The notes under the pieces: model-generated | Seen by the model: the letters and a program-made list of their open reading frames with translations, nothing else | Told to the model about the DNA's origin: nothing | The model's database searches: none | Virus record (IMG/VR): IMGVR_UViG_3300037475_000240 | Location: 62,876-126,875 of that record | From: a virus | DNA length: 64,000 nucleotides | Strand: one strand, 5' to 3' | Position numbers and translations under genes: made by a program | Shown: piece by piece, positions 30,208 through 63,058 of the stretch | Layout of the letters: every line of letters begins with the position of its first letter | How positions within the stretch are numbered: the stretch's first letter is position 1

Positions 30208-30622
30208 ATTCTTTATTAAAGAATTTTTTTGACTGTCTCATTGAAATTTCTTTTCTATCCTTTGTTGATTTATAATTAAATTTCCAGCCAGTCTTACCAC
30301 AATCACAAAATAAAAATTCTTCATAGTTGTTTTTATTATTAACGCCCTTTGTGCGATGCATTTTTATATTGAATTTATTCAAATCAAGAATAAAAGAGTG
30401 CTCTTGAATAGAGGCATGACGACATTTAATTATCGCATCATTATGATCATAATTTACATTGTATATTGTTTTATTTTTAAAACAAAGATCTGGAGACTTA
30501 TACATTTTTTCATTTTTATAAAACGAATAAAAAACAGGTCCAGAACAACAAAATTTGCACAAAGACCTAGTAGGAAATGTTGTTGATGTTTTTATTTTAG
30601 TAGAAAAATTTTTTCTATTCAT
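30197..30622 (-). CDS. Hypothetical protein
   Basis: 141 aa, Cys pairs. Confidence 0.5.
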   Translation of the reverse strand: MNRKNFSTKIKTSTTFPTRSLCKFCCSGPVFYSFYKNEKMYKSPDLCFKNKTIYNVNYDHNDAIIKCRHASIQEHSFILDLNKFNIKMHRTKGVNNKNNYEEFLFCDCGKTGWKFNYKSTKDRKEISMRQSKKFFNKEFSY

Positions 30623-31943
30623 TGTTTTTATTTAACAAAATCTTTACTTTATCTATTATTTTTTTTCTTACTCTATTAACGTAAACCATACCACCCATTT
30701 GATAATGAGGAGGAACTCTTAAATGAGTTACAATTACATTTGTTCCTGGTGAAACATCTTTTAATTTTATTTTGGAAAAACTGTATTCTTTTACTTGATG
30801 CAAAATAGAATATTTATTATCCTCAATAATAACATTAAGCAATTTACCAATATAATATGGTTTTGTGTAAGTGGCTTTTCTTCCACCAATATAAAATTCT
30901 TGTGTATTATTTTTTATTTCACCTTTAGCTGTCACTATTGCTTTAAAAGTAGATATTCCTTCAAATAAGGATAAATTTTCATCTAACAAAGATGTTATAT
31001 TATAAATATTCTTTTTTTTCTTAAGAGAGATTGGAAGATTTGATTCTAAAATAGAAATATATTCTTGAAAAATTTTATGTTGAAATCCTCCTGACCTACT
31101 GTTATCTAATAAATATGGTACCATTTCTAATGGATATTTTTCTAATATAGACTTAAATGCTTGATATACAAATATTTTATGTTTAATTGTAAAATTAACA
31201 CTACTCCAATGAGCAGAATTTACTTGTTGATCTATTACTTCTTTAATAAGTTTGAGTTTATTATTAAACTCTTCTTCAATTTCTATTTTAGATAAAGCAT
31301 CAACTTCTTGATATTGAACTTGAATTTTACTAGCATTCATTGAAAAATGTTTTATATTAGAAGTTGAATTTGGGTGATTCATCTTATTTAAGGATGAACC
31401 TTCTCCTATAAAACAACAATCAATATAAGGACAAGTTACATTATCAGATCCATCTAATGGTTTAGGAATAAATCTTTGACAATCAGAACATCTCCAACCT
31501 AATTTGGAATGTTTTTTAAAAGTATTAAAAAATGTAATCCACTTTAAATCCGTTGTTTTTTTAAGCTGTATAGTGCATTCAACACAAGATAATGTTTTTT
31601 CTAGAGTTATGTGATTTTCTTTTCCTAAGAATAGACATCCGGGGCAAAGATATTCTGTATTCTTTTTTACAGTTAAAATAGCTCTTTTTTTACAAAAAGA
31701 ATTTGTAATATAAAAAAGATAGGTATCTAAACCTTCCACATGATTATTTTTATTAATAAAAGCTATGCATCCAGTTTTTAATACATCAATTAGTTCTTCG
31801 ACTAAAGCTCTATAAGAAAGTTGATCTGTTCCTTTAAACCAATTATTATGTAATTTAACAATTCCTGGCTGCTTGTCAAGCAAGAATTTATTTACTAAAT
31901 TATCAACATCCATCATATTAAATTTTAAATTATTAACCGCCAT
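30615..31943 (-). CDS. Hypothetical protein with several CxxC zinc ribbons
   Basis: CPGC, CVEC, CSDC, CPYIDC; likely start ATG 31943; ends in TAG. Confidence 0.6.
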   Translation of the reverse strand: MAVNNLKFNMMDVDNLVNKFLLDKQPGIVKLHNNWFKGTDQLSYRALVEELIDVLKTGCIAFINKNNHVEGLDTYLFYITNSFCKKRAILTVKKNTEYLCPGCLFLGKENHITLEKTLSCVECTIQLKKTTDLKWITFFNTFKKHSKLGWRCSDCQRFIPKPLDGSDNVTCPYIDCCFIGEGSSLNKMNHPNSTSNIKHFSMNASKIQVQYQEVDALSKIEIEEEFNNKLKLIKEVIDQQVNSAHWSSVNFTIKHKIFVYQAFKSILEKYPLEMVPYLLDNSRSGGFQHKIFQEYISILESNLPISLKKKKNIYNITSLLDENLSLFEGISTFKAIVTAKGEIKNNTQEFYIGGRKATYTKPYYIGKLLNVIIEDNKYSILHQVKEYSFSKIKLKDVSPGTNVIVTHLRVPPHYQMGGMVYVNRVRKKIIDKVKILLNKNNE

Positions 31944-32925
31944 AATAATTACAAACTTCTGTGGGGGTAGTATAAGCAACTTGAAATCTATCTAGATGTC
32001 TAAAATTATCTCTTACTAAGGCATCGCCACGCCCTAAAAGATTTTCAGCGCCACTCGTGTCAAGCACAACTTTAGAATCTACATGACTTGCAACTTTACA
32101 AGATATTCTTGCCGGAAAATTAGCTTTAATAGTGCCATTAATAATATTAACAGAAGGTCTTTGTGTTGATAAAATAATATTCATTCTAGCTGCACGACAT
32201 TTTTGTGCTAATCTACATAATTTATTATAAAATTGATCTTCTTTATCTTGCATAATCAAGTCTGCAAATTCATCAATTATTAATACAATATATGGTAATT
32301 TACTTGCTAAAAATCCTTTTCTTAACATATTGTATCTAGAATCCATTATCTCTAATAAATTATCTAACATAAAAATACATTCTTCATATGTGTATGATAC
32401 TTGAACTTTAGATTTAATCCTTTTATCATATTCTGAAAATTCAATATTTTTAGGATCCATTAAAAATAATTGAGCATTATTATAATTAAATAAATTAGCA
32501 ATAATATTATGCAATAAACTACTTTTACCCGAACCAGTTGTTCCAGAAATAATCATGTGTGGATTTTGAGATAAATCCATCCACATTCTTTTTCCATCAA
32601 CTGTTTGCCCTAATAAACAAATTAAATCTCCTTTTGGAATATTTTTATTTGTAAAATAATCAAATAAATTTAAAATATCTTTTCTAGGCTGTGCAAACTC
32701 CAATCTTACAACACCTTCATTATGAATAACTTTTAAAGAAGGTTTACAAGGGGTACGTAAAATTAAAGAAATTTCTTCTATATACTTTATCAAATCTTTT
32801 ACTTTAGCGCTTGGGTTTAACTTAATATCATAGTAAAAATAATTATCTACTTTATTAAAATGAACACATGAGGCTTTAATCTTAAAACTAGTTAAGATTT
32901 TATTGAATAAATTAATTTCTTCCAT
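31933..32925 (-). CDS. FtsK/SpoIIIE-domain ATPase (no membrane domain)
   Basis: PHMIISGTTGSGKS, IIDEFADL, STQRPS, IKANFPARI, GAENLLGRGD. Confidence 0.9.
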   Translation of the reverse strand: MEEINLFNKILTSFKIKASCVHFNKVDNYFYYDIKLNPSAKVKDLIKYIEEISLILRTPCKPSLKVIHNEGVVRLEFAQPRKDILNLFDYFTNKNIPKGDLICLLGQTVDGKRMWMDLSQNPHMIISGTTGSGKSSLLHNIIANLFNYNNAQLFLMDPKNIEFSEYDKRIKSKVQVSYTYEECIFMLDNLLEIMDSRYNMLRKGFLASKLPYIVLIIDEFADLIMQDKEDQFYNKLCRLAQKCRAARMNIILSTQRPSVNIINGTIKANFPARISCKVASHVDSKVVLDTSGAENLLGRGDALVRDNFRHLDRFQVAYTTPTEVCNYYGG

Positions 32926-35966: not shown

Positions 35967-36326
35967 TTATGACCTCTTATGTTTTTCCTGTAACTCCCTA
36001 TCTTCAGCGCACGAAATACATGTTAAAAAGTAAGGATTTGCTTCTAATCTTTTTTCAGGAATATTTTCAGTACAATCCTCACATATACCATATGTTAACT
36101 CTTTGATTCTTAAAATAGCATTATCAATGCGGGCAATTTTTTCAGCATGTCTCGTTGCAATTCTATTCTGCATTTCAATTAACATTGCACCTTGAATTTC
36201 ATCTGTTTCATCACCATCTAAATCTATAGATTCTATATCTTGATCTATTTGAGTTTTAGATAATAAATTTTTTCTTTCATTAACTAATTTTTCACTTACT
36301 TTTTTTAAAAATGTTTTATTCAGCAT
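35967..36326 (-). CDS. dksA: DksA/TraR C4 zinc-finger protein
   Basis: DETD at the coiled-coil tip; YGICEDC..IPEKRLEANP...CISC. Confidence 0.88.
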   Translation of the reverse strand: MLNKTFLKKVSEKLVNERKNLLSKTQIDQDIESIDLDGDETDEIQGAMLIEMQNRIATRHAEKIARIDNAILRIKELTYGICEDCTENIPEKRLEANPYFLTCISCAEDRELQEKHKRS

Positions 36327-36714
36327 TTAATAACCTCAAATCATAAATTGGAACAACTATAATTCCTTGTGGTTTTAGCACATTTTGACCATCTATTCTA
36401 CTTTTAAAAAGCAGGTGTGCATGATCTGTTGGTTTCTTTAAAATATTTGCGCTTACAATCCAACCATTGTATTCAGCTGTTTTATAAACAGTTGAGAAAA
36501 TTAATTCTGTAGTGTTTACTAATACTTGAGTTTTCTTTTTATGGAAAGGTCCATAAACATCTTTTGGTTTATATCCAAACTGGCTAGTAAATAAACTAAT
36601 AGCTTCGTCAAGATTTAAAGCCTGAATAGATTTTGTTTGTAATTCATTATTTGTTGAGATTCCGGCACAAACAAAAAAAATAGGTTTTACACGCTTATCC
36701 CGCTTATTAAACAT
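36316..36714 (-). CDS. Hypothetical protein
   Basis: 132 aa; ATG directly follows the upstream in-frame TAG. Confidence 0.6.
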   Translation of the reverse strand: MFNKRDKRVKPIFFVCAGISTNNELQTKSIQALNLDEAISLFTSQFGYKPKDVYGPFHKKKTQVLVNTTELIFSTVYKTAEYNGWIVSANILKKPTDHAHLLFKSRIDGQNVLKPQGIIVVPIYDLRLLNAE

Positions 36715-37047
36715 CTAATCATCCTTAAAAGTTTTGTCAATGTCTAGCGAATTACATAATTTTTTTCTTATCAATGGTGCTAGTGAAAATTTTAAAATAC
36801 GTGCGCCTGATGAAAGCATGATTTTATTATATCTAACATCATGATATTTTCTTGGTTTAGTTTCTTCTAAAGATAAAATTCCAAAATTAAAAATCTTTAT
36901 TTTGTTGCCATTTTTTAAATCTTTTATCATTTCATCAATTAAAATTGTAATAACAGATCCAATATGATAAAAGTGAAGAGATTTATTTAATTTTTTATTA
37001 ACATATTTCCATAAATCTCTTCTACTAATATTGTTAATATCTTTCAT
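36715..37047 (-). CDS. HU/IHF family DNA-binding protein
   Basis: LKNGNKIKIFNFGIL...KPRK...LKF; ends in TAG. Confidence 0.75.
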   Translation of the reverse strand: MKDINNISRRDLWKYVNKKLNKSLHFYHIGSVITILIDEMIKDLKNGNKIKIFNFGILSLEETKPRKYHDVRYNKIMLSSGARILKFSLAPLIRKKLCNSLDIDKTFKDD

Positions 37048-43084: not shown

Positions 43085-43615
43085 TCAACCATTCTTTTTA
43101 GTTGGAGATACAAGTAAATACATAAATTTACCTTCAAGAGAAATATTAGGAGAAGCAACAATTAAATCTTTTAACTGATCAATGATCCAATTAAGTTTAT
43201 CAGCTCCAACCTCAGGATGAACAATTTCACGTCCGCGAAATCTGATAGTGAATTTTACTTTATGACCTTCTAACAAAAATCCTTTAGCAGAATCAAGTTT
43301 ATGATTTAAATCATTTTCATCTGTATTAGGTCTAAAAGTAATTTCTTTTAATTCTTGAATTTTCTGATTTTTTTTAGCTTCTGAAAGCTTTTTCTTCTCA
43401 TCATATTTAAACTTACCATAATCTATAATTTTACAAACTGGCGGAATTCCCTTTGGATTTACTTCCACTAAATCCAAACCTTGATCTATTGCCATTTTAA
43501 GAGCATCGCGAATAGACATAATTCCTGGGGATGTTCCATCTTCTAAAATAACTCTAACCTGAGGAACACGAATTTGATTATTTATACGAATTTTATATTG
43601 ATTATTTGTTTGCAT
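43085..43615 (-). CDS. infC: Translation initiation factor IF-3
   Basis: RINNQIRVPQVRVI, GLDLVEV, PPVCKIIDYGKFKY, KVKFTIRFRGRE. Confidence 0.95.
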   Translation of the reverse strand: MQTNNQYKIRINNQIRVPQVRVILEDGTSPGIMSIRDALKMAIDQGLDLVEVNPKGIPPVCKIIDYGKFKYDEKKKLSEAKKNQKIQELKEITFRPNTDENDLNHKLDSAKGFLLEGHKVKFTIRFRGREIVHPEVGADKLNWIIDQLKDLIVASPNISLEGKFMYLLVSPTKKNG

Positions 43616-44022: not shown

Positions 44023-44445
44023 TTACCATTGTACATAATAAGAATAATCTGCAGGTATTAAACAAGTATGACTCTCATCATTAGGATGGTAGTCAGGAGG
44101 ATTATATTGTTCCCTCACTCTTAATCCGTCAACTTCTTTAATAGCTATCACAATTGATTCCACAGGGATATTATTTGGAATAATTGAAGATCCTAAAAAA
44201 ATCTCTTTAATATGTTTATTATAAATATCTCTTTTAATATTATTATCTATTTTTATATCTTCTTTTGCAATTAAATCAAATAAAGTGCTTTCAACCCAAA
44301 CTTTAGCTTCAGGAATTTTAGTTTGTATCTGTTTATTTTTTCGATCACGTTCAAGCGCTTTTGCACGTAATTTTTCAGAAATTTTCTTATTTTCTTCTTG
44401 TTTTGCTTGATTTATTTTTTCTTCTAATTTTGGGTGCATTAACAT
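44023..44445 (-). CDS. Hypothetical protein
   Basis: 140-aa ORF. Confidence 0.55.
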   Translation of the reverse strand: MLMHPKLEEKINQAKQEENKKISEKLRAKALERDRKNKQIQTKIPEAKVWVESTLFDLIAKEDIKIDNNIKRDIYNKHIKEIFLGSSIIPNNIPVESIVIAIKEVDGLRVREQYNPPDYHPNDESHTCLIPADYSYYVQW

Positions 44446-44878
44446 CTACTCCATAATTTTTTAATATAGAAATATCCAGTTTCCATTGTTTTGTGGAACG
44501 TTCAACCCATTTAATAAAAATATCCTCAATATATTTCTCAGCCGTTTTCTTTGACCAAGAATTAATTTTCATTAAATGACGTAAGGCGTGTTCGCTTTTA
44601 TTTTGGATATTTGCGAGCCCAATATGTTTAACCATATGACAGTCCGGGCACAAGGCGATCATTCCGACTAAAATTTGAATTAAATTTTTATCATCATATT
44701 CCCAAATTTCGTGACATTCTACAGGGTGTTTTTTACCAACATCACCACAAATTTGACAAACGTAATAAGCTTCTGAATATACTTTCTGGCGAATTATATC
44801 CCATTGTGTTTGAGTTACTTCTGAACGTATGTTGGAAAACCAGCAGGTAGATGGAACAAGATCAATAGTTAACTTCAT
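44387..44878 (-). CDS. HNH-like nuclease-fold protein
   Basis: LTIDLVPSTCWFSNIR...CQICG...ECHEIWEY...LCPDCHMVKH; start ATG 44878, 3 nt after the tRNA CCA. Confidence 0.7.
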   Translation of the reverse strand: MKLTIDLVPSTCWFSNIRSEVTQTQWDIIRQKVYSEAYYVCQICGDVGKKHPVECHEIWEYDDKNLIQILVGMIALCPDCHMVKHIGLANIQNKSEHALRHLMKINSWSKKTAEKYIEDIFIKWVERSTKQWKLDISILKNYGVDVNAPKIRRKNKSSKTRRK

Positions 44879-44881
44879 TTG

Positions 44882-44956
44882 TGGTGCGTCTAGGGAATTC
44901 TGCCATCCCAACCTACCAGTTTAGAATTGGTCGCTCTACTTTTGAGCTATAGACGC
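44882..44956 (-). tRNA. tRNA with CUA anticodon (amber suppressor) 1
   Basis: GCGTCTA/TAGACGC acceptor stem, GCTC/GAGC D-stem, loop TT-CTA-AA, encoded A-CCA; atypical T-loop GGCAGAA. Confidence 0.8.
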
Positions 44957-45014
44957 ATATTTCGAACTCACTATCAATACTATAACATAATATTACTATA
45001 TAATAGGAGATATA

Positions 45015-45716
45015 ATGAAAAAAATGACTGAAGAAAAATTAAAAGAAGCTGTAAAAAAATCAATTAGTATCGCTGGCGCTTTAAAATTTATGGAAATGAG
45101 TGTTACTACAGGTAACTATAAGTCTTTCCATAAGAAAGTAAAATTATACAATATAGATATAAATCATTTTTTAGGACAATCTCATTTACGTGGAGCTTCA
45201 CATCAAACTAAAAAAAGTATACCTCTTGCAGATATTCTTGTAGAAGATAGTATGTTCTCTAATACTGCTTCACTTAAAATAAAATTATTAAAGACAAATT
45301 TGTTAAAATATGAATGTTATAACTGTGGAATTTCTAGTTGGAAGGACAAAGATTTAATATTACAATTAGATCATATTAATGGCATTTGGAATGACAACCG
45401 TTTAGAAAACTTACGATTATTGTGTCCAAATTGTCACTCCCAAACAGAAACATTTGCTGGTCGTAATATAAATAAAAATAAAGCAAAGGAAACAATTATT
45501 TATTATTATAGTAAGTGTGAAAATTGTGAAGAGCTTGTTCAACAAAAAAACACAACTAAATGTTTAGATTGTTATCTAAAATTACAACCTACTAAAATTT
45601 CATGGCCATCAACTAAAAATTTAATCAAAATGGTAGAAGAAAGTAGTTATTTAGCGGTTGGGAAAAAACTAGGAGTTAGTGATAATGCTGTTAGAAAGAG
45701 AATAAAAAATCATTAA
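45015..45716 (+). CDS. HNH homing endonuclease within the tRNA cluster
   Basis: CYNCG..W....LQLDHING..NDNRLENLRLLCPNCHSQT; C-terminal HTH GKKLGVSDNAVRKR. Confidence 0.88.
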   Translation: MKKMTEEKLKEAVKKSISIAGALKFMEMSVTTGNYKSFHKKVKLYNIDINHFLGQSHLRGASHQTKKSIPLADILVEDSMFSNTASLKIKLLKTNLLKYECYNCGISSWKDKDLILQLDHINGIWNDNRLENLRLLCPNCHSQTETFAGRNINKNKAKETIIYYYSKCENCEELVQQKNTTKCLDCYLKLQPTKISWPSTKNLIKMVEESSYLAVGKKLGVSDNAVRKRIKNH

Positions 45717-45718
45717 AA

Positions 45719-45796
45719 TAGCTCTCTAGGTAGGATTTGAACCTACAATCATCTATTTAGAGTAGATAGCTTTAGACCACTGAGACTTACAGGAGA
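45719..45796 (-). tRNA. tRNA with CUA anticodon (amber suppressor) 2, partly degenerate
   Basis: ATCTA-CT-CTA-AA-TAGAT anticodon arm; GTAGG-TTCAAAT-CCTAC T-arm; acceptor TCTCCTG/CTAGAGA with two mismatches; ends G-CTA. Confidence 0.65.
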
Positions 45797-45801
45797 ATAG
45801 T

Positions 45802-45921
45802 TGAGGCGGCAGGTAAGATTCGCACTTACATCCTCTTCTTTAACTAAGAAGTGCTCGGTCATAAATTATTTATCATATCACGTTAATATGAGATATTTCA
45901 TTTTAATTGAGCTACTGCCAC
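45802..45921 (-). tRNA. tRNA-like gene with 52-nt D-loop; central triplet GTT
   Basis: GTGGCAG/CTGCCGC acceptor, GCTC/GAGC D-stem around 52 nt, CTTCT-TAGTTAA-AGAAG, GTAAG-TGCGAAT-CTTAC. Confidence 0.65.
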
Positions 45922-45962
45922 ATAAAATCTATAACAACTATAATTTATTTTTTAATGAAAAA

Positions 45963-46697
45963 TTAAACTTGAACTCCAGCACCATAATAAGATGTAACCC
46001 ATGCATCTAAAGCAGCTTTTTCACCTGATGTGGGTTCTCCATTCCAGGCTCCAACAGCCGCAATATCTACATCAGAACTTGTTGTTGATGCATTTGATCT
46101 AGCGAATAAAACGAAAGATGGAGCATCGGAATTACCAGCATTAGCTCCAGTAACGGATGTAGATCCAGCTTTTACGTAATCAGAAGTGCTATTAGTAAAT
46201 GATGTTTCTACACGAGTGGCAACTCCAATTGTTGCTCCACCATTTACGTTAACTTGAGTTGTGTTGCTTTGTCGAATATTGACTCCACCTGATGCTTGTG
46301 AAATCGCTAAAATACCATTACCACCAGCCATAATGTATCTACCTGATAAGCTTGAACGTTGACGCAAAATTACCCAGAACCACACTGGCGTGGTACCAGG
46401 TACTGGTGGATCCCAAGTCATTGTCATAGCAGCATTATTACTACTAGTTAGACTATTTCGTGAACCAAAATTAGAATCTGCAATATTATAAGCTGGTTGT
46501 AAGCCGGTGTTAGCTTGAACAGCATTATTTCCATTTCCACTTTGATCTGCCCATAACGATGCACCTGTTACAACTGTAACTCCAAGATCCGCAATTAAAT
46601 AGAAAAAGGCTGATCTACTAGTTATAATAGACAAAGGATCAGTTGGTCCTATTTGTACTGAATTTTTTATCCAAGATATTGTTGCTGTACCAGGCAT
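45963..46697 (-). CDS. LamG/concanavalin-like beta-sandwich protein, probably virion-associated
   Basis: WADQSGNGNNAVQ...QP motif; Ser/Thr/Gly/Ala-rich. Confidence 0.55.
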   Translation of the reverse strand: MPGTATISWIKNSVQIGPTDPLSIITSRSAFFYLIADLGVTVVTGASLWADQSGNGNNAVQANTGLQPAYNIADSNFGSRNSLTSSNNAAMTMTWDPPVPGTTPVWFWVILRQRSSLSGRYIMAGGNGILAISQASGGVNIRQSNTTQVNVNGGATIGVATRVETSFTNSTSDYVKAGSTSVTGANAGNSDAPSFVLFARSNASTTSSDVDIAAVGAWNGEPTSGEKAALDAWVTSYYGAGVQV

Positions 46698-46724
46698 ATA
46701 AATATGCCGTTACAGTAATATAAA

Positions 46725-47063
46725 TTACTTAAATGCTAACTTTAAATTATTAACTAATTTTTTAGTTAATTTGCCGGGCTCTATACAAATTGCAGTAAGA
46801 GAATTATTTAAATCTGGTTCTAAAAATTTTGAATATTTTAACTCTAATTCTTCTGATTTATTAATTAAATTAATTAAATCACTTTCAGAAGCTACAGCTA
46901 ATAGACAAATATAATTTGAATTATTAAACCATTCTTTATCTATTTCAGGATGATCATTTGAGAATTGTCTTAAAGCATGACATAGTTGTGATGCTTGTTG
47001 ACCAAAATTCAAATCATTTCTAGTAATTACGTATAACTTATCATTTTGTTGAATCTACGACAT
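46725..47063 (-). CDS. Pth2-family peptidyl-tRNA hydrolase with in-frame TAG at codon 3
   Basis: AAGGA-8nt-ATG TCG TAG ATT CAA...; MS*IQQNDKLYVITRNDLNFGQQASQLCHA...EPDLNNSLTAICI; the YVxxRxDL motif lies upstream of the track's TTG start. Confidence 0.8.
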
Positions 47064-47427
47064 TTTTTATTTCCTTCATTTTTGACACAAATTTACGACC
47101 ATGTTCACGCCATTTTTCAACAGCTTCAGCATACCTATTTCCATTATCTTGGCATTCTGATAAATCAATAGGCACTTCTGGATCTTCTAATAATACATCA
47201 GCCAAACTTAGTGGATTAATAAATATTTTCATTCCTCTGGAAGTAATTTTTCCGCCCACTATATTATAGTATGGAAGGCTTTCATCTCGATTAAGTATTT
47301 CTAATCTTCCATCATAATAAGCTGGAACAATTTCTACAAAATGTATATCATTGTTACCAATACAACATTCAGCCTCACCTGACGGATCTTCTTTCATTAA
47401 TAACTCAATTAATTTTTTAGTTTTCAT
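47041..47427 (-). CDS. Hypothetical protein
   Basis: 128 aa, ATGA-coupled to the HD gene. Confidence 0.65.
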   Translation of the reverse strand: MKTKKLIELLMKEDPSGEAECCIGNNDIHFVEIVPAYYDGRLEILNRDESLPYYNIVGGKITSRGMKIFINPLSLADVLLEDPEVPIDLSECQDNGNRYAEAVEKWREHGRKFVSKMKEIKNVVDSTK

Positions 47428-47996
47428 TTAATAAATAATTTCTGACAAATAGCTTTGCCTCGCTTGTTAATTTGATTCCATTTAATTTTAAATGATTCAG
47501 ATGTGCAACCACCAAACATTTTAGAATTAGAATGAATTTCGGCTAATCCTACTATTAACAAAGTAATAGCCTCTGGATACTTAATAAAATTATCTACATC
47601 TATTGCTTTCATTTTATGAATAAGCATATCCATTTTCATTAGTTGAGCGGCTTGTAAATTACCACCCACGCTCAACCAAACTTCATAAGATTTTTCTGCA
47701 TGATTAGGAAAATGTTTCTTACCAAGACTATCTATTTCTAAACAATAAATTTTTCCACAATCATGATAGATTGTATATTCTTCAATAATACTTTCAGATA
47801 ATAAGTTATTTAATATTTGTTCGCGAAATTGAAAAAACCATTCAGGTAATCTCCAGCCTGACAATTCCACATTGTTTTTTAACATAAATAATAATTCAAA
47901 ATAGTGCTCTTTTACAGAAATTCCATGTTGGTAAATGGTTTGATTTTCTGTTTGCAAACAGCTCTGCATATCTAAAATTAATTGACTCTATAACAT
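47424..47996 (-). CDS. HD-domain hydrolase with in-frame TAG at codon 3
   Basis: AGGAG-5nt-ATG TTA TAG AGT CAA...; ML*SQLILDMQSC...QHG...YHDCGK...HFPNHA. Confidence 0.75.
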
Positions 47997-48023
47997 TTTA
48001 ACTCCTAATTATATATACCGTTA

Positions 48024-48368
48024 TTACATAAAAGCTTTAAGCCCTAAAATTTTTTCAAATTCTTTTTGAGAAGAACACTCAATATTTTTACCTTTATAAA
48101 ACCAAGCGACAGCTCCAGTTATAAAAATAACTGCAGGTCCATCTAACCTGTGAATTAATCCATATTCATACCATTCTTTATATTTTCCACTTTGTGAGAT
48201 ATAAGCAGGTCCATTAATTCTATGTAATTTTCCTTCAAAATACCATTCTTCATCACCATTAGAATATTCAATGGCAGGTCCATCTACTCGATGTAAAACA
48301 TTATTTTTATACCATTTGAATCCATTTGCATATTCAAACACACCATTTTTTATAACGTCTTCAGCCAT
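48024..48368 (-). CDS. HRxDGPA-repeat protein
   Basis: Three WY.xG.LHR.DGPA repeats; likely start MAEDV. Confidence 0.7.
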   Translation of the reverse strand: MAEDVIKNGVFEYANGFKWYKNNVLHRVDGPAIEYSNGDEEWYFEGKLHRINGPAYISQSGKYKEWYEYGLIHRLDGPAVIFITGAVAWFYKGKNIECSSQKEFEKILGLKAFM

Positions 48369-48871
48369 GCTGCACATTCTTTTGCATGAGAAACTGATTC
48401 AATAATATCATCTTTAGCTCTATGAGCTTCAGCTTTTTTAAATTCAGGCATACCTAAACTTTGGCAAAATAACTTCACTGAAGATACATCATAGTGACGA
48501 TGAGAAAATCTATCATGAAGTGGTGCCATATATTGTTTAATAAACCCAGCATCAAAATGAATTGCGCTACCAGCATAGATTGGCATGCTTTTTCTATTTA
48601 CAGCAGTAGGAATTAATTTTAATAAATCCTCTTGAACATCTTCAATAGTTGCAGTGCTTTCTAAGCACTCTTTAAGCAAACCATTTTTAGTATGCATTTC
48701 TCTTACAAAAGGATCTAAAGATTCATCTTGGCTAAATTTTAAAACATTTTGATATACAAAATTAATGTTAAAAGGATCTTCTAGAGTTGCTTTATAAACT
48801 GCAACTTCTAATATTTTATCTATTTCAGGTTTAAGTCCAGTTGTTTCTAAATCAATCCAATATAAATCCAT
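48350..48871 (-). CDS. orn: Oligoribonuclease (DEDDh)
   Basis: WIDLETTGL, MHTKNGL, GSAIHFD, HYDVSSVK, HRAKDDIIES. Confidence 0.9.
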   Translation of the reverse strand: MDLYWIDLETTGLKPEIDKILEVAVYKATLEDPFNINFVYQNVLKFSQDESLDPFVREMHTKNGLLKECLESTATIEDVQEDLLKLIPTAVNRKSMPIYAGSAIHFDAGFIKQYMAPLHDRFSHRHYDVSSVKLFCQSLGMPEFKKAEAHRAKDDIIESVSHAKECAAWLKTL

Positions 48872-50377: not shown

Positions 50378-50733
50378 TGGTGTAGGCGCAGGGTATCGAA
50401 GCCCTGGTCCACAAAACGTCATTATCGAAATTCATTCACAAGCTTAGTTAATGTTAACGTCACTAACAACGTTGAAAGAATTCGCTCTCACGGGCTATCT
50501 ACATTAATTTCATGTTGAACTATATAGAGTTATCCAACACTATCTTTAGTGGGTTTATACTTCTTTGATTACCAAAAATATCTCATCTGGAAGTATCAAG
50601 TGTGCCCTTAGGCTGCTTGAGCAATGCTATTATCGTTTGCATTTGGACGTTTAATTGCTTTTTATAAGGTTGCAATCATCCTTAGCTTGCATCATTTCGA
50701 CAAATCTTTTCCATGTCGAATCCATTCGCCCAC
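50378..50733 (-). ncRNA. ssrA: tmRNA, tag (A)ANDNSIAQAA
   Basis: 5' GTGGGCGAATGGATTCGAC; 3' CAGGGCTTCGATACCCTG-CGCCTAC-ACCA with G3-U pair; tag ORF at 50608-50640. Confidence 0.92.
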
Positions 50734-50752
50734 ATATTCGTAACAACAGAAT

Positions 50753-50938
50753 TTAACTTCTGCTTTTAAATTGATTTGCTGGTATTGGATGAGCACCATT
50801 CAAATAAGAATTATATCCACCTCTACCATCATCAATCCAAACACTATTATTACCACAACTACATATTAAATAGTAATCAACACCCATGCGAGTGTCTTTA
50901 CCACAAATATGTCCGCAATTTGAACAAACATAATCCAT
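50753..50938 (-). CDS. Small zinc-ribbon protein
   Basis: CSNC...CSC; AGGA RBS. Confidence 0.55.
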   Translation of the reverse strand: MDYVCSNCGHICGKDTRMGVDYYLICSCGNNSVWIDDGRGGYNSYLNGAHPIPANQFKSRS

Positions 50939-50953
50939 ATTAATCCTAATAGT

Positions 50954-51028
50954 TGGAGCTACAGGTGAGAATCAAACTCACGACAACCTACCTACCAAGT
51001 AGGGATTCTATCACTGAATTACTGTAGC
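50954..51028 (-). tRNA. tRNA-Thr(GGT)
   Basis: GCTACAG/CTGTAGC acceptor, CCTAC-TT-GGT-AG-GTAGG, encoded CCA. Confidence 0.85.
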
Positions 51029-51116
51029 TTACTAAGATATTGATGGAGTAACAAGAGAACATTACCACCTGCCCTTTTTCTCTTAAAAATGTATAAGGTG
51101 TTTTCTTCAATATCTG

Positions 51117-51193
51117 TGGAGCCCTGGACCAGGATTTGAACCGGTGACCTGTGCCTTACAAGAGCACTGCTCTACCAACTGAGCTACCAGGGC
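51117..51193 (-). tRNA. tRNA-Thr(TGT)
   Basis: GCCCTGG/CCAGGGC acceptor, AGTTGGTA D-loop, CT-TGT-AA, TTCAAAT, encoded CCA. Confidence 0.93.
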
Positions 51194-51266: not shown

Positions 51267-52052
51267 TTACAGTCCACCTTCTCTAAAAATATCCATACCA
51301 TTTTTTAATATATTACTTAAAAATGATTGATCTCTAGTAAAAATAGGAAGCTCAGAGTTTAAAAACCACTTAGCCTTCATTTTACCATCAACTACTTTAG
51401 GGACTTTATAGTAAGCTGTCCCTCTTTTGAAAGCGGATGGATAGTCATTAAAATCAATATTAGATTCTTGTTTTAAGAGTTCAATTTTTTCGTCTGCTCC
51501 TAATCCTGATAACATCTCTCTAATTGTATTTTTATCATGTTTCTTTAATAATTCATATAGACAGGCTTGATGAAGAGAACTCAAAAAGCTATGTTGTTGC
51601 TTATAAACCATTGTATTAATAGCTTCACCAACAGTGGGTACAGGAAAAACCTGAGATATAAAAATCGGATCACCTAATGTGTTTAACTTAATAGTACTAG
51701 CACAATCATTGAAATGCATAGTAGCAATAGCTGATGTTACTGAACATATTTTTTGAATGTTATTGTCAAACCAAGCTTCAGTATCATTGTTTTGATCATT
51801 TCTAAGTATTAAAGTGATTTCATCACTATGTTGATAGGCAAAAACTACACCTTCAACTTCATTACATATTCTTAATGAAGTATTAAAAATACATTCAGCA
51901 AATTTATTATCATAAGGCTTATCTAATAAAGATGTTAATTTAGAAAAATTCTTTCCATTTATATTAATAATAATTGGAACCTTAGCAATTAAAGTATAAT
52001 TTGTAGTTTTTTGATAAGACTCTATTCGGTCTTTTAAGGTGAGGCTAGACAT
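51267..52052 (-). CDS. Thg1-like (tRNA-His guanylyltransferase family) protein
   Basis: PIIININGKNFSKLT..KPYD, AYQHSDEITL, AWFDNNIQKICSV, FKRG. Confidence 0.85.
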   Translation of the reverse strand: MSSLTLKDRIESYQKTTNYTLIAKVPIIININGKNFSKLTSLLDKPYDNKFAECIFNTSLRICNEVEGVVFAYQHSDEITLILRNDQNNDTEAWFDNNIQKICSVTSAIATMHFNDCASTIKLNTLGDPIFISQVFPVPTVGEAINTMVYKQQHSFLSSLHQACLYELLKKHDKNTIREMLSGLGADEKIELLKQESNIDFNDYPSAFKRGTAYYKVPKVVDGKMKAKWFLNSELPIFTRDQSFLSNILKNGMDIFREGGL

Positions 52053-62341: not shown

Positions 62342-63058
62342 TTAATCAAAATCTGATTTATAATATACTTGTTTAGCTTTAACTTGAACTATTTCTTTAG
62401 TTTCTAGAATAAGACAACTTAAATTGCCTCCAAAACAGCAACCAGTATCTAATCCATAACAAAATACACCCGGGATAACCTCTTCAATTAAAGGCTTGTC
62501 ATATGAGTGAACATTATGTCCGTACACAATAGACTCTGGACCTTTCCAGAATTCTGTCCAGAAATGCGCTCCAGCTGCTTCTTTACCTAATTTATGTATC
62601 TTTTTTAAGGATAAAAATTTCATATCCTTATCGGTATACCTTAGATATAACAGCTCGTCTTTAGATTGTTTTTCTATGGGGGTGCCAGGTTTAGCTCCAC
62701 CATGTACTGCAACGACTTCGCCAAGATTAATATAGATTGGCATTTTAAAAATGTAATCTACATCTTCTTGACAAAAATCTTGGTAGTAAGATTTCTTATC
62801 ATAAACGTCTACCTTAGTGCCAAAAGTTTTGTACCACTTTAAGAATTTATGTTCATGGTTTCCCATAATACATTCTAAGTTAAGTTGACGCGCTCTTCTA
62901 ACAACTCCGACAGGATCTGGTCCTCGATCCAAAAGATCTCCTAATAAAACAACTCTATCATTTAAAACGTTGTAATTTAATTTATTTAAAAGTAAATTAA
63001 ATTCTTCTAAGCAACCGTGGATATCTCCTATAATTATAGTTCTTTCTTTAATTTCCAT
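62342..63058 (-). CDS. Metallophosphoesterase (ApaH/PrpE/Pnkp-phosphatase-like)
   Basis: GDIHGC, GDLLDRGP, GNHE, VHGG, VYGH, LDTGCCFG. Confidence 0.9.
   Translation of the reverse strand: MEIKERTIIIGDIHGCLEEFNLLLNKLNYNVLNDRVVLLGDLLDRGPDPVGVVRRARQLNLECIMGNHEHKFLKWYKTFGTKVDVYDKKSYYQDFCQEDVDYIFKMPIYINLGEVVAVHGGAKPGTPIEKQSKDELLYLRYTDKDMKFLSLKKIHKLGKEAAGAHFWTEFWKGPESIVYGHNVHSYDKPLIEEVIPGVFCYGLDTGCCFGGNLSCLILETKEIVQVKAKQVYYKSDFD

Follow-up and report, generated by a model that had tools for sequence, protein, structure and literature searches.

Organisation of the locus and assignment of its genes

The window analysed here comprises 64,000 nucleotides (positions 62,876 to 126,875 of the IMG/VR virus record IMGVR_UViG_3300037475_000240), and its source contig of 126,875 bp represents approximately 29% of a jumbo phage (giant soil phage). 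The following features, given by their positions in the window, were considered:

43085..43615, minus strand: IF-3, phage translation initiation factor (TIGR00168, 204 bits, cut-off 60)
44882..44956, minus strand: tRNA(CUA) of the G1:C72 and A73 class, CCA encoded (Rfam match at 44885-44956, 43.7 bits; missed by ARAGORN)
45015..45716, plus strand: HNH endonuclease gene, an insertion that separates the two CUA tRNAs and has the opposite orientation
45721-45796, minus strand: tRNA(CUA) of the U1:A72 and G73 class (ARAGORN; Rfam only 25.8 bits against a gathering score of 29)
45805..45921, minus strand: tRNA-like gene, D loop enlarged by a 49-nt insertion, anticodon loop UAGUUAA (Rfam tRNA 41.4 bits)
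45963..46697, minus strand: ORF of 244 aa between PTH2 and the tRNAs, no family match in Pfam or PHROG
46725..47054, minus strand: PTH2-type peptidyl-tRNA hydrolase (P0002) of 109 aa counted from the TAG, ending at TAA 46727-46725 (PF01981)
47055..47063, minus strand: PTH2 leader ATG TCG TAG (ATG 47063-47061, amber codon 47057-47055)
47072..47076, minus strand: Shine-Dalgarno (SD) sequence AAGGA of PTH2, 8 nt 5' of the leader ATG
47041..47427, minus strand: P0003, small protein; the gene overlaps the HD stop with its ATG (ATGA) and the PTH2 leader with its 3' end
47424..47987, minus strand: HD-fold phosphohydrolase (P0001) of 187 aa counted from the TAG, ending at TGA 47426-47424
47988..47996, minus strand: HD leader ATG TTA TAG (ATG 47996-47994, amber codon 47990-47988)
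48002..48006, minus strand: SD sequence AGGAG of the HD gene, 5 nt (ttaaa) 5' of the leader ATG
48350..48871, minus strand: RNase T-type DEDD exonuclease (PF00929, E 2.7e-12)
50378-50733, minus strand: tmRNA, conserved upstream neighbour
50954-51028 and 51117-51193, minus strand: tRNA-Thr GGU and UGU, conserved upstream neighbours
51267..52052, minus strand: Thg1-like 3'-5' nucleotidyltransferase of the tRNA 5'-end repair family (PF04446, E 4e-22)

HD and PTH2 are hereby placed in one island with the tmRNA, the Thr tRNAs, the Thg1-like enzyme, the RNase T-like exonuclease and IF3, and the order of the tmRNA and tRNA-Thr genes (50378..51193) is identical in relatives. An earlier note on this DNA had described for both genes a ribosome binding site, an ATG, one sense codon and a TAG followed by continuation in frame, and this arrangement was seen in each case (AGGAG-5nt-ATG TTA TAG at 47996-47988 for HD; AAGGA-8nt-ATG TCG TAG at 47063-47055 for PTH2). 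The HD frame is open from the TAG via an ATG at 47969 to the TGA at 47426-47424. Since this in-frame ATG is kept seven codons past the TAG, re-initiation could yield a slightly shorter HD protein. The first ATG, GTG or TTG 3' of the PTH2 TAG is the TTG at 47012, residue 15 of the post-TAG translation.

The Pfam search of the HD protein returned no family at E-values up to 0.01, and the only PHROGs match was phrog_14850, a family of unknown function. Its predicted structure (pLDDT 97.8), in which residues 2-9 belong to helix 1, had as best structural match a tRNA nucleotidyltransferase (3wfo_A, residues 253-448; Z 13.4, rmsd 3.1, 158 aligned), followed by GlyRS beta HD domains (Z 9.3-11.1) and many HD hydrolases (Z 7-10), while the sequence profile matched 3wfp (E 1.4e-4). 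Residues H21, H75, D76, H96, D120, and H124 are invariant among 86 sequences and display the H...HD...D metal-binding pattern. The protein is predicted to be a metal-dependent HD phosphohydrolase, with the C-terminal part of tRNA nucleotidyltransferases as its nearest structural match.

The PTH2 protein matched PF01981 with 34.9 bits (cut-off 23; residues 6-106 on profile positions 2-114 of 115), the match beginning at residue 6, i.e., five codons past the TAG and before the first canonical start. A profile built from 17 phage PTH2 sequences matched the solved Pth2 chains 2zv3, 1wn2, and 1rzw (E 1.3e-8 to 2.7e-6), among them the archaeal Pth2 2zv3_A over its full length (E 1.3e-8; profile 6-106 on chain 2-114 of 115), and the solved chains begin at the residue aligned to K6 of PTH2. 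The NCBIfam Pth2 equivalog model scored 27.8 bits against a cut-off of 126, and the protein is therefore regarded as a divergent member of the family and is predicted to be a Pth2-type ester hydrolase. The suspicion in the earlier note that both products are enzymes of tRNA ends is supported by the proximity of the HD model to the C-terminal part of tRNA nucleotidyltransferase and by the full-length match of PTH2 to archaeal Pth2. Distant relatives encode the two proteins as a fusion, and a shared substrate, the tRNA 3' end, is therefore most likely.

Searches of Pfam and PHROG with P0003 gave no match; 26 other homologs were found, with relatives near the same HD/PTH2 module in L016, L025, L028, and L120. 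The three-gene unit described earlier is correct for the window, but the middle gene falls outside the conserved core, PTH2 following directly after HD in relatives.

Conservation of the early TAG in relatives

For the comparison of homologs, distinct 5' regions of HD (n = 57) and PTH2 (n = 58) were collected from IMG/VR and metagenome relatives. The early TAG, the conservation of which had been proposed as a test in the earlier note, was kept in 53/57 HD regions, where it lies within 20 codons 5' of an invariant Met (at seven codons in 44), and in 56/58 PTH2 regions, where it lies six codons before the KLY motif in 46. Two of the remaining four HD regions are PTH2-HD fusions that carry a single TAG where the fusion begins; the other two have no TAG. 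Neither TAA or TGA nor CAA or CAG occurred at this position in any of the 57 HD and 58 PTH2 regions compared at the DNA level. An ATG precedes the TAG in all cases (53/53 HD, 56/56 PTH2), with an SD-like 4-mer before it in 32/53 HD and 54/56 PTH2 regions, and the leader comprises 2-8 codons before the TAG, with outliers of 12 and 36. The position of the TAG is shared by both genes across relatives down to 38% identity.

Among 15 distinct HD genes, the third position after the TAG encodes Leu or Ile in 14, via six different codons, the fourth Ile in 13, and the sixth Asp in 13 (GAT or GAC). All 56 PTH2 genes lack an ATG, GTG or TTG in the stretch from the TAG to the domain. These patterns suggest that the stretch between the TAG and the next Met or domain is translated as protein. 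That the TAG itself is the selected codon at the gate position is indicated by its near-constant presence there and the absence of TAA and TGA, although TAG is uncommon among upstream in-frame stops and gene ends. In relatives lacking the TAG, the residue at this position varies (T, Y, A, F and others). PTH2 of L021 and L022 starts with an ATG exactly where the other relatives have the TAG, and the database cluster P0037 has Leu there; the gene can therefore persist after the gate has disappeared.

A leader minigene was weighed as an explanation, according to which ribosomes would terminate at the UAG and restart at Met7 (HD) or at the AUU, GUU or AUC following the TAG (PTH2), with the CUA tRNAs being unrelated. 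We regard this as improbable. Any stop codon would serve such a restart, yet the codon found in 53/53 HD and 56/56 PTH2 genes is TAG, the rarest stop in these genomes. The ATG seven codons past the TAG in 44/53 HD genes is what a restart would use, but this Met is also invariant in the PTH2-HD fusions, where a start is impossible, and conservation at the protein level extends over the residues between the HD TAG and the Met, which are modelled within helix 1. The codon after the PTH2 TAG (ATT 28, GTT 13, ATC 6; n = 56) likewise agrees with a restart; these codons are, however, compatible with a conserved Ile/Val residue, and elsewhere the codons after the TAG are not near-cognate starts (AAC 16, CTT 9, and AAT 6 in HD; AAC, GGC, and TTA in some PTH2 genes). 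The ATG at the TAG position in L021/L022 and the possession by the phage of its own IF3, a factor that tunes the choice of start codon, also speak for re-initiation, and the tight linkage of the CUA tRNAs speaks against it.

CUA tRNAs and the use of TAG in the genome

Two tRNA genes with CUA anticodons had been reported downstream on the same strand, and both were found, 0.9 and 1.8 kb away. Each folds into a cloverleaf with a CUA anticodon and irregular arms: in the tRNA at 45721-45796, the acceptor stem contains two mismatches and the D arm is altered, and that at 44882..44956 has a 9-nt T loop without TTC. Their counterparts in the relative L002, which lie only 5 nt apart, reached Rfam scores of 58.4 bits (vs. 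25.8) and 63.9 bits (vs. 43.7). Both CUA tRNAs of the window look degraded compared with the closest complete relative, which makes it uncertain whether this individual phage suppresses UAG. A counterpart of the tRNA-like gene at 45805..45921 was not seen in L002.

Of 39 distinct homologous loci whose 3' flank extends for 2 kb or more, 28 carry one or two CUA tRNAs downstream on the same strand, in agreement with the co-occurrence that had been anticipated, and 11 have none in the flank. In the tRNA-rich stretches examined of three distant genomes, CUA tRNAs are located at other places of the contig, in one case 80 nt from PTH2. The 634-kb phage LR745206.1 carries the TAG in both genes, and no plain CUA tRNA was found among the 57 tRNAs of the parts examined. 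By pairwise score, the nearest tRNAs are of the Asn type for one CUA class and of the Lys or Val type for the other.

The complete 448-kb relative G005 (approximately 666 genes, 37 tRNAs) contains no close paralog of the CUA tRNAs. It encodes RF2 (TIGR00020, 398 bits, cut-off 370) and also a LysRS; RF2 does not read UAG. The label "tRNA-Pyl" assigned by ARAGORN reflects the anticodon only, and the sole aminoacyl-tRNA synthetase seen in G005, which scored 29.9 bits on PylS_Cterm (cut-off 178), was identified as LysRS.

Gene census of the whole contig with a simple custom gene caller yielded 155 genes with a coding density of 0.945 (94%) under code 11, and the genes end in TAA (124), TGA (29) or TAG (2). 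The nearest upstream in-frame stop is TAG in 30 of 154 contig genes. When these stops were scanned for an SD-like motif (4 nt or longer) and a start codon no more than five codons 5' of the stop, the combination was detected for 2/30 TAG, 1/95 TAA, and 0/29 TGA stops, and the two TAG cases are exactly HD and PTH2. In G005, 25 of 666 genes end in TAG, the coding density is 0.885 under code 11 vs. 0.865 with TAG as a sense codon, and an SD sequence, an ATG and a TAG at codon 3 coincide only in HD and PTH2 among its approximately 666 genes. None of six candidate internal TAGs in G005 lies inside a Pfam domain. A code-15 phage with reassigned TAG was rejected given the code-11 densities of the contig and of G005, where further supported in-frame TAGs were not found, and the earlier view that this is not genome-wide recoding holds, the standard code being used elsewhere on the contig and in G005.

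Incipient or residual reassignment of TAG throughout the genome, which would make the early TAGs neutral leftovers of no regulatory role, is about as unlikely as the leader minigene. A neutral TAG should alternate with sense codons and sit anywhere, whereas here it occupies one position in two genes down to 38% identity, is never replaced by CAA or CAG in the 57 and 58 DNA-level regions, and forms such a gate in no other of the approximately 666 genes of G005; in relatives without it, the residue varies (T, Y, A, F and others). On the other side, the relatives own the tool kit of a code change (CUA tRNAs, RF2, an aminoacyl-tRNA synthetase), TAG is depleted among stops, the contig represents only 29% of this genome, and the acquisition of suppressors by standard-code phages has been proposed as a step of recoding (Borges et al., bioRxiv 10.1101/2021.08.26.457843, in the part of the text available).

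Still less probable is initiation at the UAG itself by means of an initiator-like tRNA(CUA). An initiator tRNA of E. coli is able to start translation at UAG when its anticodon is CUA, and ATG replaces the TAG in L021/L022; yet the SD sequence is spaced for the upstream ATG (54/56 PTH2), the distance from ATG to TAG varies from 2 to 8 codons, so that the spacing between SD and TAG is not kept, and the anticodon stems of the CUA tRNAs examined have no run of three G:C pairs, which is typical of initiator tRNAs.

A second assembly (Logan contig of 36,674 bp, run X1) covers positions 44800-48100 with one difference (47597 C>T) and agrees with the window at both TAGs; it is not independent, because it probably comes from the source sample. 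This DNA was present in no RNA run. Sequencing errors or pseudogenes under loss, for which the degraded look of both CUA tRNAs and the insertion of the HNH gene and an extra ORF into the module would speak, are scarcely credible, as the second assembly is concordant, the same TAGs recur in dozens of independent contigs and both ORFs are otherwise intact with all family-invariant residues.

A probable gene-specific amber gate

Taken as a whole, the conserved TAG, the co-localized CUA tRNAs and the otherwise standard code support the core of the earlier reading, namely that full-length HD and PTH2 need gene-specific read-through of UAG by phage CUA tRNAs. We consider it likely that translation of the two genes needs a phage suppressor tRNA and that they are controlled by a gene-specific amber gate in a genome otherwise using the standard code. 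Ribosomes would initiate at the SD-linked ATG of HD and PTH2 and reach the UAG at codon 3, where a dipeptide would be released if no UAG reader were present, and where a charged phage tRNA(CUA) would permit read-through to the full-length enzyme. P0003 would probably be made via coupling to HD, as its start overlaps the HD stop. Read-through at both genes would therefore let the amount of both enzymes be set by suppressor activity vs. release factor 1. This layout recurs in dozens of related phages, so that production of the enzymes probably requires the CUA tRNAs to override the stop; the occurrence of read-through is inferred here from sequence comparison. Our best guess for the purpose of the gate is that the supply of the enzymes is tied to the tRNA expression of the phage itself or to the level of read-through.

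More tentatively, and with some doubt, the CUA tRNAs, possibly together with LysRS and RF2 as seen in G005, could form a private UAG channel with the two tRNA-end enzymes as its only clients and the suppressor as licence signal. HD and PTH2 would then appear once the phage tRNA genes are expressed and their products charged, in proportion to read-through. Two uses would fit the gate: rescue capacity could be matched to the stalled ribosomes and shed peptidyl-tRNA arising from read-through, the tmRNA being encoded in the same island, or enzymes that strip or reset host tRNA ends could be withheld until the phage tRNA set takes over.

Control of genes by one tRNA is known from Streptomyces, where the bldA tRNA-Leu(UAA) controls TTA-containing genes. 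The proposed gate resembles it in that one tRNA species would license a small set of genes via one special codon; bldA, however, involves a rare sense codon in a cellular developmental switch, whereas here a stop codon and release-factor competition in a virus are concerned. The minigenes of lambda bar (ATG-ATA-stop) release peptidyl-tRNA and become toxic if Pth is in short supply. The leaders in the window likewise consist of a start, one codon and a stop, and one gated gene encodes a peptidyl-tRNA hydrolase. Unlike in the stand-alone bar minigenes, the leaders of the relatives have 2 to 8 or more codons and invariably stop with TAG, and the frame leads on into a conserved protein. The two-codon form is therefore not the conserved feature, so that the bar analogy drawn in the earlier note found no support, and a bar-type minigene was rejected, since the leader, the frame of which continues into conserved protein, is not stand-alone. 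Synthetic amber-suppression switches and biocontainment systems use an early UAG and an orthogonal suppressor tRNA as an on/off gate for chosen genes; these are engineered, and the phage gate would be their natural counterpart.

Suppressor tRNAs and RF2 are also features of stop-codon-recoded phages (code 15: crAss-like, Lak, Agate and others), where they have been proposed to time late and lysis genes (bioRxiv 10.1101/2021.08.26.457843, in the part of the text available). These phages share with those studied here a phage tRNA(CUA), RF2 (in the complete relative), the depletion of TAG as stop and in-frame TAGs that would block a protein until the suppressor acts. However, they have hundreds of in-frame TAGs across structural and lysis genes and a low code-11 density, whereas here this density is 94% (contig) and 88.5% (G005), TAG is confined to two genes, and the gated genes are not late proteins but encode tRNA-end enzymes beside tRNA genes, with the TAG in every case a few codons past the start. 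PTH2, Thg1, IF3, and CCA-adding or HD-type enzymes are recurrent tRNA-repair and ribosome-rescue genes of jumbo phages (Iyer et al., 2021, PMC7824862), and PTH2, Thg1, IF3, and an HD-type enzyme are present here. In contrast, the in-frame TAG and the link to CUA tRNAs are not described in the accessible part of that text, from which "suppressor" and "tmRNA" are absent and in which "amber" appears only in a reference title.

A search of the literature found no publication describing an amber-gated HD/PTH2 layout with CUA tRNAs. We know of no target so far for the suppressor tRNAs of standard-code phages, for which two conserved candidate client genes are now proposed. Both the switch and the enzymes can be tested directly with simple reporters and tRNA substrates. 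The pairing of HD hydrolase and Pth2, fused in some phages, is likely a tRNA 3'-end processing unit of jumbo phages. If read-through is confirmed, it would represent a natural gene-specific stop-codon switch, the counterpart of synthetic amber gates, and possibly a first step towards whole-genome recoding, and a private UAG channel, if true, would be a natural, virus-built orthogonal translation switch.

Architecture of the gate and similar arrangements on the contig

The record is a single viral contig of 126,875 bp with 31% G+C, of which the window forms the 3' half, and because CheckV estimated its completeness at 29% it was regarded as a fragment of a jumbo phage genome. The genes for an HD-fold phosphohydrolase (HD) and a PTH2-type peptidyl-tRNA hydrolase (PTH2) each begin with an SD motif, an ATG, one codon (mostly a few in relatives) and an in-frame TAG, an arrangement termed the gate, and a small gene (P0003) lies between them:

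47996-47988, minus strand, HD leader ATG TTA TAG, preceded by AGGAG and a 5-nt gap; frame open to the TGA at 47426-47424
47427-47041, minus strand, P0003 (128 aa); its ATG overlaps the HD stop and its 3' end the PTH2 leader
47063-47055, minus strand, PTH2 leader ATG TCG TAG, preceded by AAGGA and an 8-nt gap; frame open to the TAA at 46727-46725

The first ATG, GTG or TTG past the PTH2 TAG is residue 15 and the Pfam PTH2 match runs from residue 6, the start of which is aligned to the residue where the chains of solved archaeal Pth2 proteins start. A Logan contig of sequencing run X1, a second assembly of what is probably the source sample and not an independent one, was identical to the window at both TAGs; it differed by one base (C>T) at 47597 within the HD gene. 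Only short, unlike pieces of runs X2 and X3 matched the window in the contig-level comparison. No RNA run containing the window DNA was found among the sequencing runs listed, and promoter and terminator scans gave no usable result. The P0003 tail ...NVVDS(T/A)K is the PTH2 leader region (ATG TCG TAG ATT) read in another frame (47041-47066), and the same tail ends the HD proteins of several relatives. Whichever gene lies upstream of PTH2, its end crosses the PTH2 gate.

The gene census of the contig was performed using a simple home-made gene caller under code 11 and yielded 155 genes, with 94% of the contig coding and TAA, TGA and TAG as the stops of 124, 29 and 2 genes. Genes were scored as gate-like when an SD-like motif and a start codon were located at most five codons 5' of the nearest upstream in-frame stop, which was the case for 2 of the 30 genes in which this stop is TAG (HD and PTH2), for 1/95 with TAA and for 0/29 with TGA. 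Two look-alikes were rejected. The gene at 44023-44445 and its homolog in the related locus L002 (ATG GAG TAG ATG/ATA...) are not gated, the GGAG before the TAG being the SD of the ATG after it, and at position 336623 of the relative G005 an ordinary start comes directly after ATG TAG. Both TAG-terminated genes lie on the minus strand. The HU-like gene (36715-37047) is followed immediately and in the same frame by the ATG of the next gene (36316-37047 together), so that suppression would yield a 244-aa fusion; since the G005 homologs of the two genes are in different frames, this TAG was read as an ordinary stop and the in-frame arrangement as probably incidental. The other gene (30615-31979) has a TAA five codons on, and read-through would add only 6 residues.

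Conservation of the gate and its linkage to CUA tRNAs

Related loci were collected from IMG/VR scans (27), a metagenome scan (56) and GenBank (one megaphage), and duplicates were removed before counting; repeat scans used alignment A1, and a scan of genome contigs returned no relative. The expectation of the earlier note that homologs would keep a TAG near codon 3 held, with variable spacing from the ATG. For HD, a TAG was located at most 20 codons 5' of an invariant Met in 53 of 57 distinct 5' regions, with a spacing of 7 codons in 44; two of the remainder are PTH2-HD fusions with one TAG at the fusion start, and two have an ordinary start. For PTH2 the TAG was present in 56/58 distinct 5' regions, the exceptions being L021/L022, in which ATG takes the very place of the TAG, and L142, whose TAG is 21 codons away. 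TAA or TGA never occupied the gate position in any of these 57 HD and 58 PTH2 regions. All gated genes have an ATG 5' of the TAG, mostly at a distance of 2-5 codons (outliers 7, 8, 12 and 36), and an SD-like 4-mer precedes this leader ATG in 32/53 HD and 54/56 PTH2 genes.

The codons flanking the TAG vary freely save for two preferences, namely CTA or TTA (Leu) before it (HD 24/53, PTH2 38/56) and a purine after it (HD 42/53, PTH2 53/56). The Leu codon bias may reflect selection of a read-through context or a dependence on a second tRNA; G005 encodes its own tRNA-Leu(UAG) and tRNA-Leu(UAA). Between the TAG and the Met of HD the codons show a protein-coding pattern (15 distinct genes): position +3 after the TAG is Leu or Ile in 14/15, written with six different codons, +4 is Ile in 13/15, and +6 is Asp in 13/15, as GAT or GAC. 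These residues form the first helix in the AlphaFold model of HD (pLDDT 97.8). None of 56 PTH2 genes offers a canonical start codon between its TAG and the domain. Among N-terminally extended database proteins, 23 of 24 have Q at the TAG position, and the PTH2 homolog cluster P0037 has L; as CAA and CAG are absent from this position in all DNA-level regions, the Q presumably stems from gene calling with TAG read as Q.

The co-occurrence with CUA tRNAs, i.e., putative amber suppressor tRNAs, that the earlier note had proposed to test was likewise supported. Among the 39 distinct loci whose 3' flank spans 2 kb or more, 28 have at least one CUA tRNA downstream on the same strand, and 12 of these 28 have two. 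The usual gene order is Thr tRNAs, tmRNA, a few genes, HD, PTH2, CUA tRNA(s) and tRNA-Arg(CCU). Where the flank had no CUA tRNA, Rfam detected no tRNA of any kind in L021, L117, L135 or L138; in L136 it detected none downstream. Neither the L011 contig (15% complete) nor the L021 contig (37%) contains a tRNA. Leaving aside the distant genomes, the loci that lack a tRNA lie on short contigs or on fragments with a completeness of 15-37%. In the more distant genomes, tRNA-rich stretches were scanned for CUA tRNAs. G002 has a gated HD, an ungated PTH2 and a CUA tRNA 80 nt from PTH2; G003 has a gated PTH2 and one CUA tRNA elsewhere; G004 has an ungated HD, a PTH2 beginning ATG TTG TAG and two CUA tRNAs. 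In the 634-kb phage LR745206.1, where both genes are gated, no plain CUA anticodon was found among 57 tRNAs in seven tRNA-rich stretches. One intron-containing tRNA call in this phage has CTA beside the intron.

Predicted functions of the module and its surroundings

The HD protein had no Pfam match. Its invariant residues are H21, H75-D76, H96, D120 and H124 (86 sequences). Structure comparison placed its model nearest to a tRNA nucleotidyltransferase, over residues 253-448 of the latter (3wfo_A; Z 13.4, rmsd 3.1, 158 aligned), with bacterial GlyRS beta HD domains next (Z 9.3-11.1) and generic HD hydrolases after those; Foldseek and a sequence profile led to the same entries. In the CCA-adding enzyme of E. 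coli, the HD domain acts as a 2',3'-cyclic phosphodiesterase and as a phosphatase. The second protein (P0002) is, judged by its sequence, a divergent PTH2. The HD family comprises 461 clusters at 50% identity, PTH2-HD fusions occur among many distant members and were seen at the DNA level in L023, L143 and L147, and this recurrence argues that the two enzymes probably share a substrate. A complex prediction for HD with PTH2 scored 0.00, which speaks neither for nor against contact between them. Neither Pfam nor PHROG assigns P0003 to a family, and the best fold match of its model (pLDDT 94) has Z 5.4, on the C-terminal helix. It is absent from the conserved HD-PTH2 junction of relatives; members of its family occur near the module in L016, L025, L028 and L120, and 26 other related proteins are in the databases.

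Features around the module in the window are as follows:

51267-52052, minus strand, Thg1-like 3'-5' nucleotidyltransferase, flanking the module
50954-51193, minus strand, tRNA-Thr(GGU) and tRNA-Thr(UGU), preceding the tmRNA
50378-50733, minus strand, tmRNA (Rfam 104.5 bits; no ARAGORN call in the window)
48350-48871, minus strand, RNase T-type exonuclease, flanking the module
45805-45921, minus strand, tRNA-like gene (Rfam) with a 49-nt D-loop insertion, anticodon loop UAGUUAA and no U33
45721-45796, tRNA(CUA) of the U1:A72/G73 class (ARAGORN; Rfam 25.8 bits vs 58.4 in L002)
45015-45716, plus strand, HNH endonuclease gene
44885-44956, tRNA(CUA) of the G1:C72/A73 class (Rfam 43.7 bits vs 63.9 in L002)
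44387-44878, minus strand, HNH endonuclease gene
43085-43615, minus strand, full-length IF-3 (TIGR00168, 204 bits)

The Thg1-like enzyme, the RNase T-type exonuclease, HD and PTH2 together form a putative tRNA end-repair island. Relatives have up to all four Thr isoacceptors at the position of the Thr tRNAs, which suggests pressure on tRNA-Thr. PTH2, Thg1 and IF3 have been described as tRNA-repair and rescue genes of jumbo phages, with no mention of suppressor tRNAs or of an in-frame stop (Iyer et al., 2021, PMC7824862).

Both CUA tRNAs of the window are irregular: in the U1:A72/G73 copy the D arm is altered and the acceptor stem contains two mismatches, and the G1:C72/A73 copy has a 9-nt T loop. 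As a result, the gate of this phage may function poorly or be in decay, though both enzyme ORFs are intact. The two HNH genes flank the G1:C72/A73 copy, and the one at 45015-45716 separates the two CUA tRNAs; in L002 the spacing of the pair is 5 nt. This HNH gene resembles T4/T5-type homing endonucleases (~70% identical at the DNA level across 200 nt), and L012 encodes a homolog. The tRNA-like gene is without counterpart in L002; a 102-nt tRNA match in L028 (4862-4963) may resemble it. In a BLAST search of E. coli genomes, two CUA tRNAs matched tRNA-Arg and tRNA-Ile at 76-79% identity, which is no guide to the amino acid carried; the CUA tRNAs of G005 have no close paralog in that genome. By pairwise score, Asn-type tRNAs are the nearest to one class and Lys- or Val-type tRNAs to the other. 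One class combines A73 with a Lys-like body and may be a substrate of the LysRS encoded by G005 (see below).

Genetic code of the clade and probable read-through of the gate

The claim that the genome is not recoded throughout was upheld by the code-11 coding density and the census of G005, a complete relative of 447,763 bp with an HD 76% identical to that of the window and the same gene order. Its coding density is 0.885 under code 11 vs 0.865 with TAG as sense, its 666 stops comprise 474 TAA, 167 TGA and 25 TAG, and none of its six candidate internal TAGs lies within a Pfam domain. An SD followed by ATG and TAG at codon 3 occurs only in HD and PTH2. Two of its 37 tRNAs are CUA tRNAs, and it also encodes:

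L082:16679-18298, LysRS (TIGR00499, 504 bits)
L100:5360-6439, RF2 (TIGR00020, 398 bits)

The relative G006 likewise has matches to the Pfam families of these two proteins (tRNA-synt_2 and RF-1). RF2 has been reported in TAG-recoded Lak and Agate phages (Borges et al., bioRxiv 10.1101/2021.08.26.457843).

Translation of HD and PTH2 by read-through of the UAG with the phage tRNA is the best explanation of the gate, and we consider it likely, because TAG is used exclusively, the coding signal continues across it, PTH2 has no alternative start and matching tRNAs adjoin. Re-initiation after the leader ORF would leave the constant use of TAG as the stop unexplained and appears improbable. That TAG serves as a neutral sense codon is equally improbable, as its fixed position and its restriction to two genes would then be unaccounted for. 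In full-text literature searches, no account of a conserved early UAG in the HD or PTH2 genes of phages came up.

Read-through with the phage tRNA could serve to time or license synthesis of the two enzymes by the phage's own tRNA expression, or to scale rescue capacity to read-through. Since G005 has CUA tRNAs, LysRS and RF2 and the gate in HD and PTH2 alone, this standard-code clade has the tool kit of a code change yet only two clients for it.
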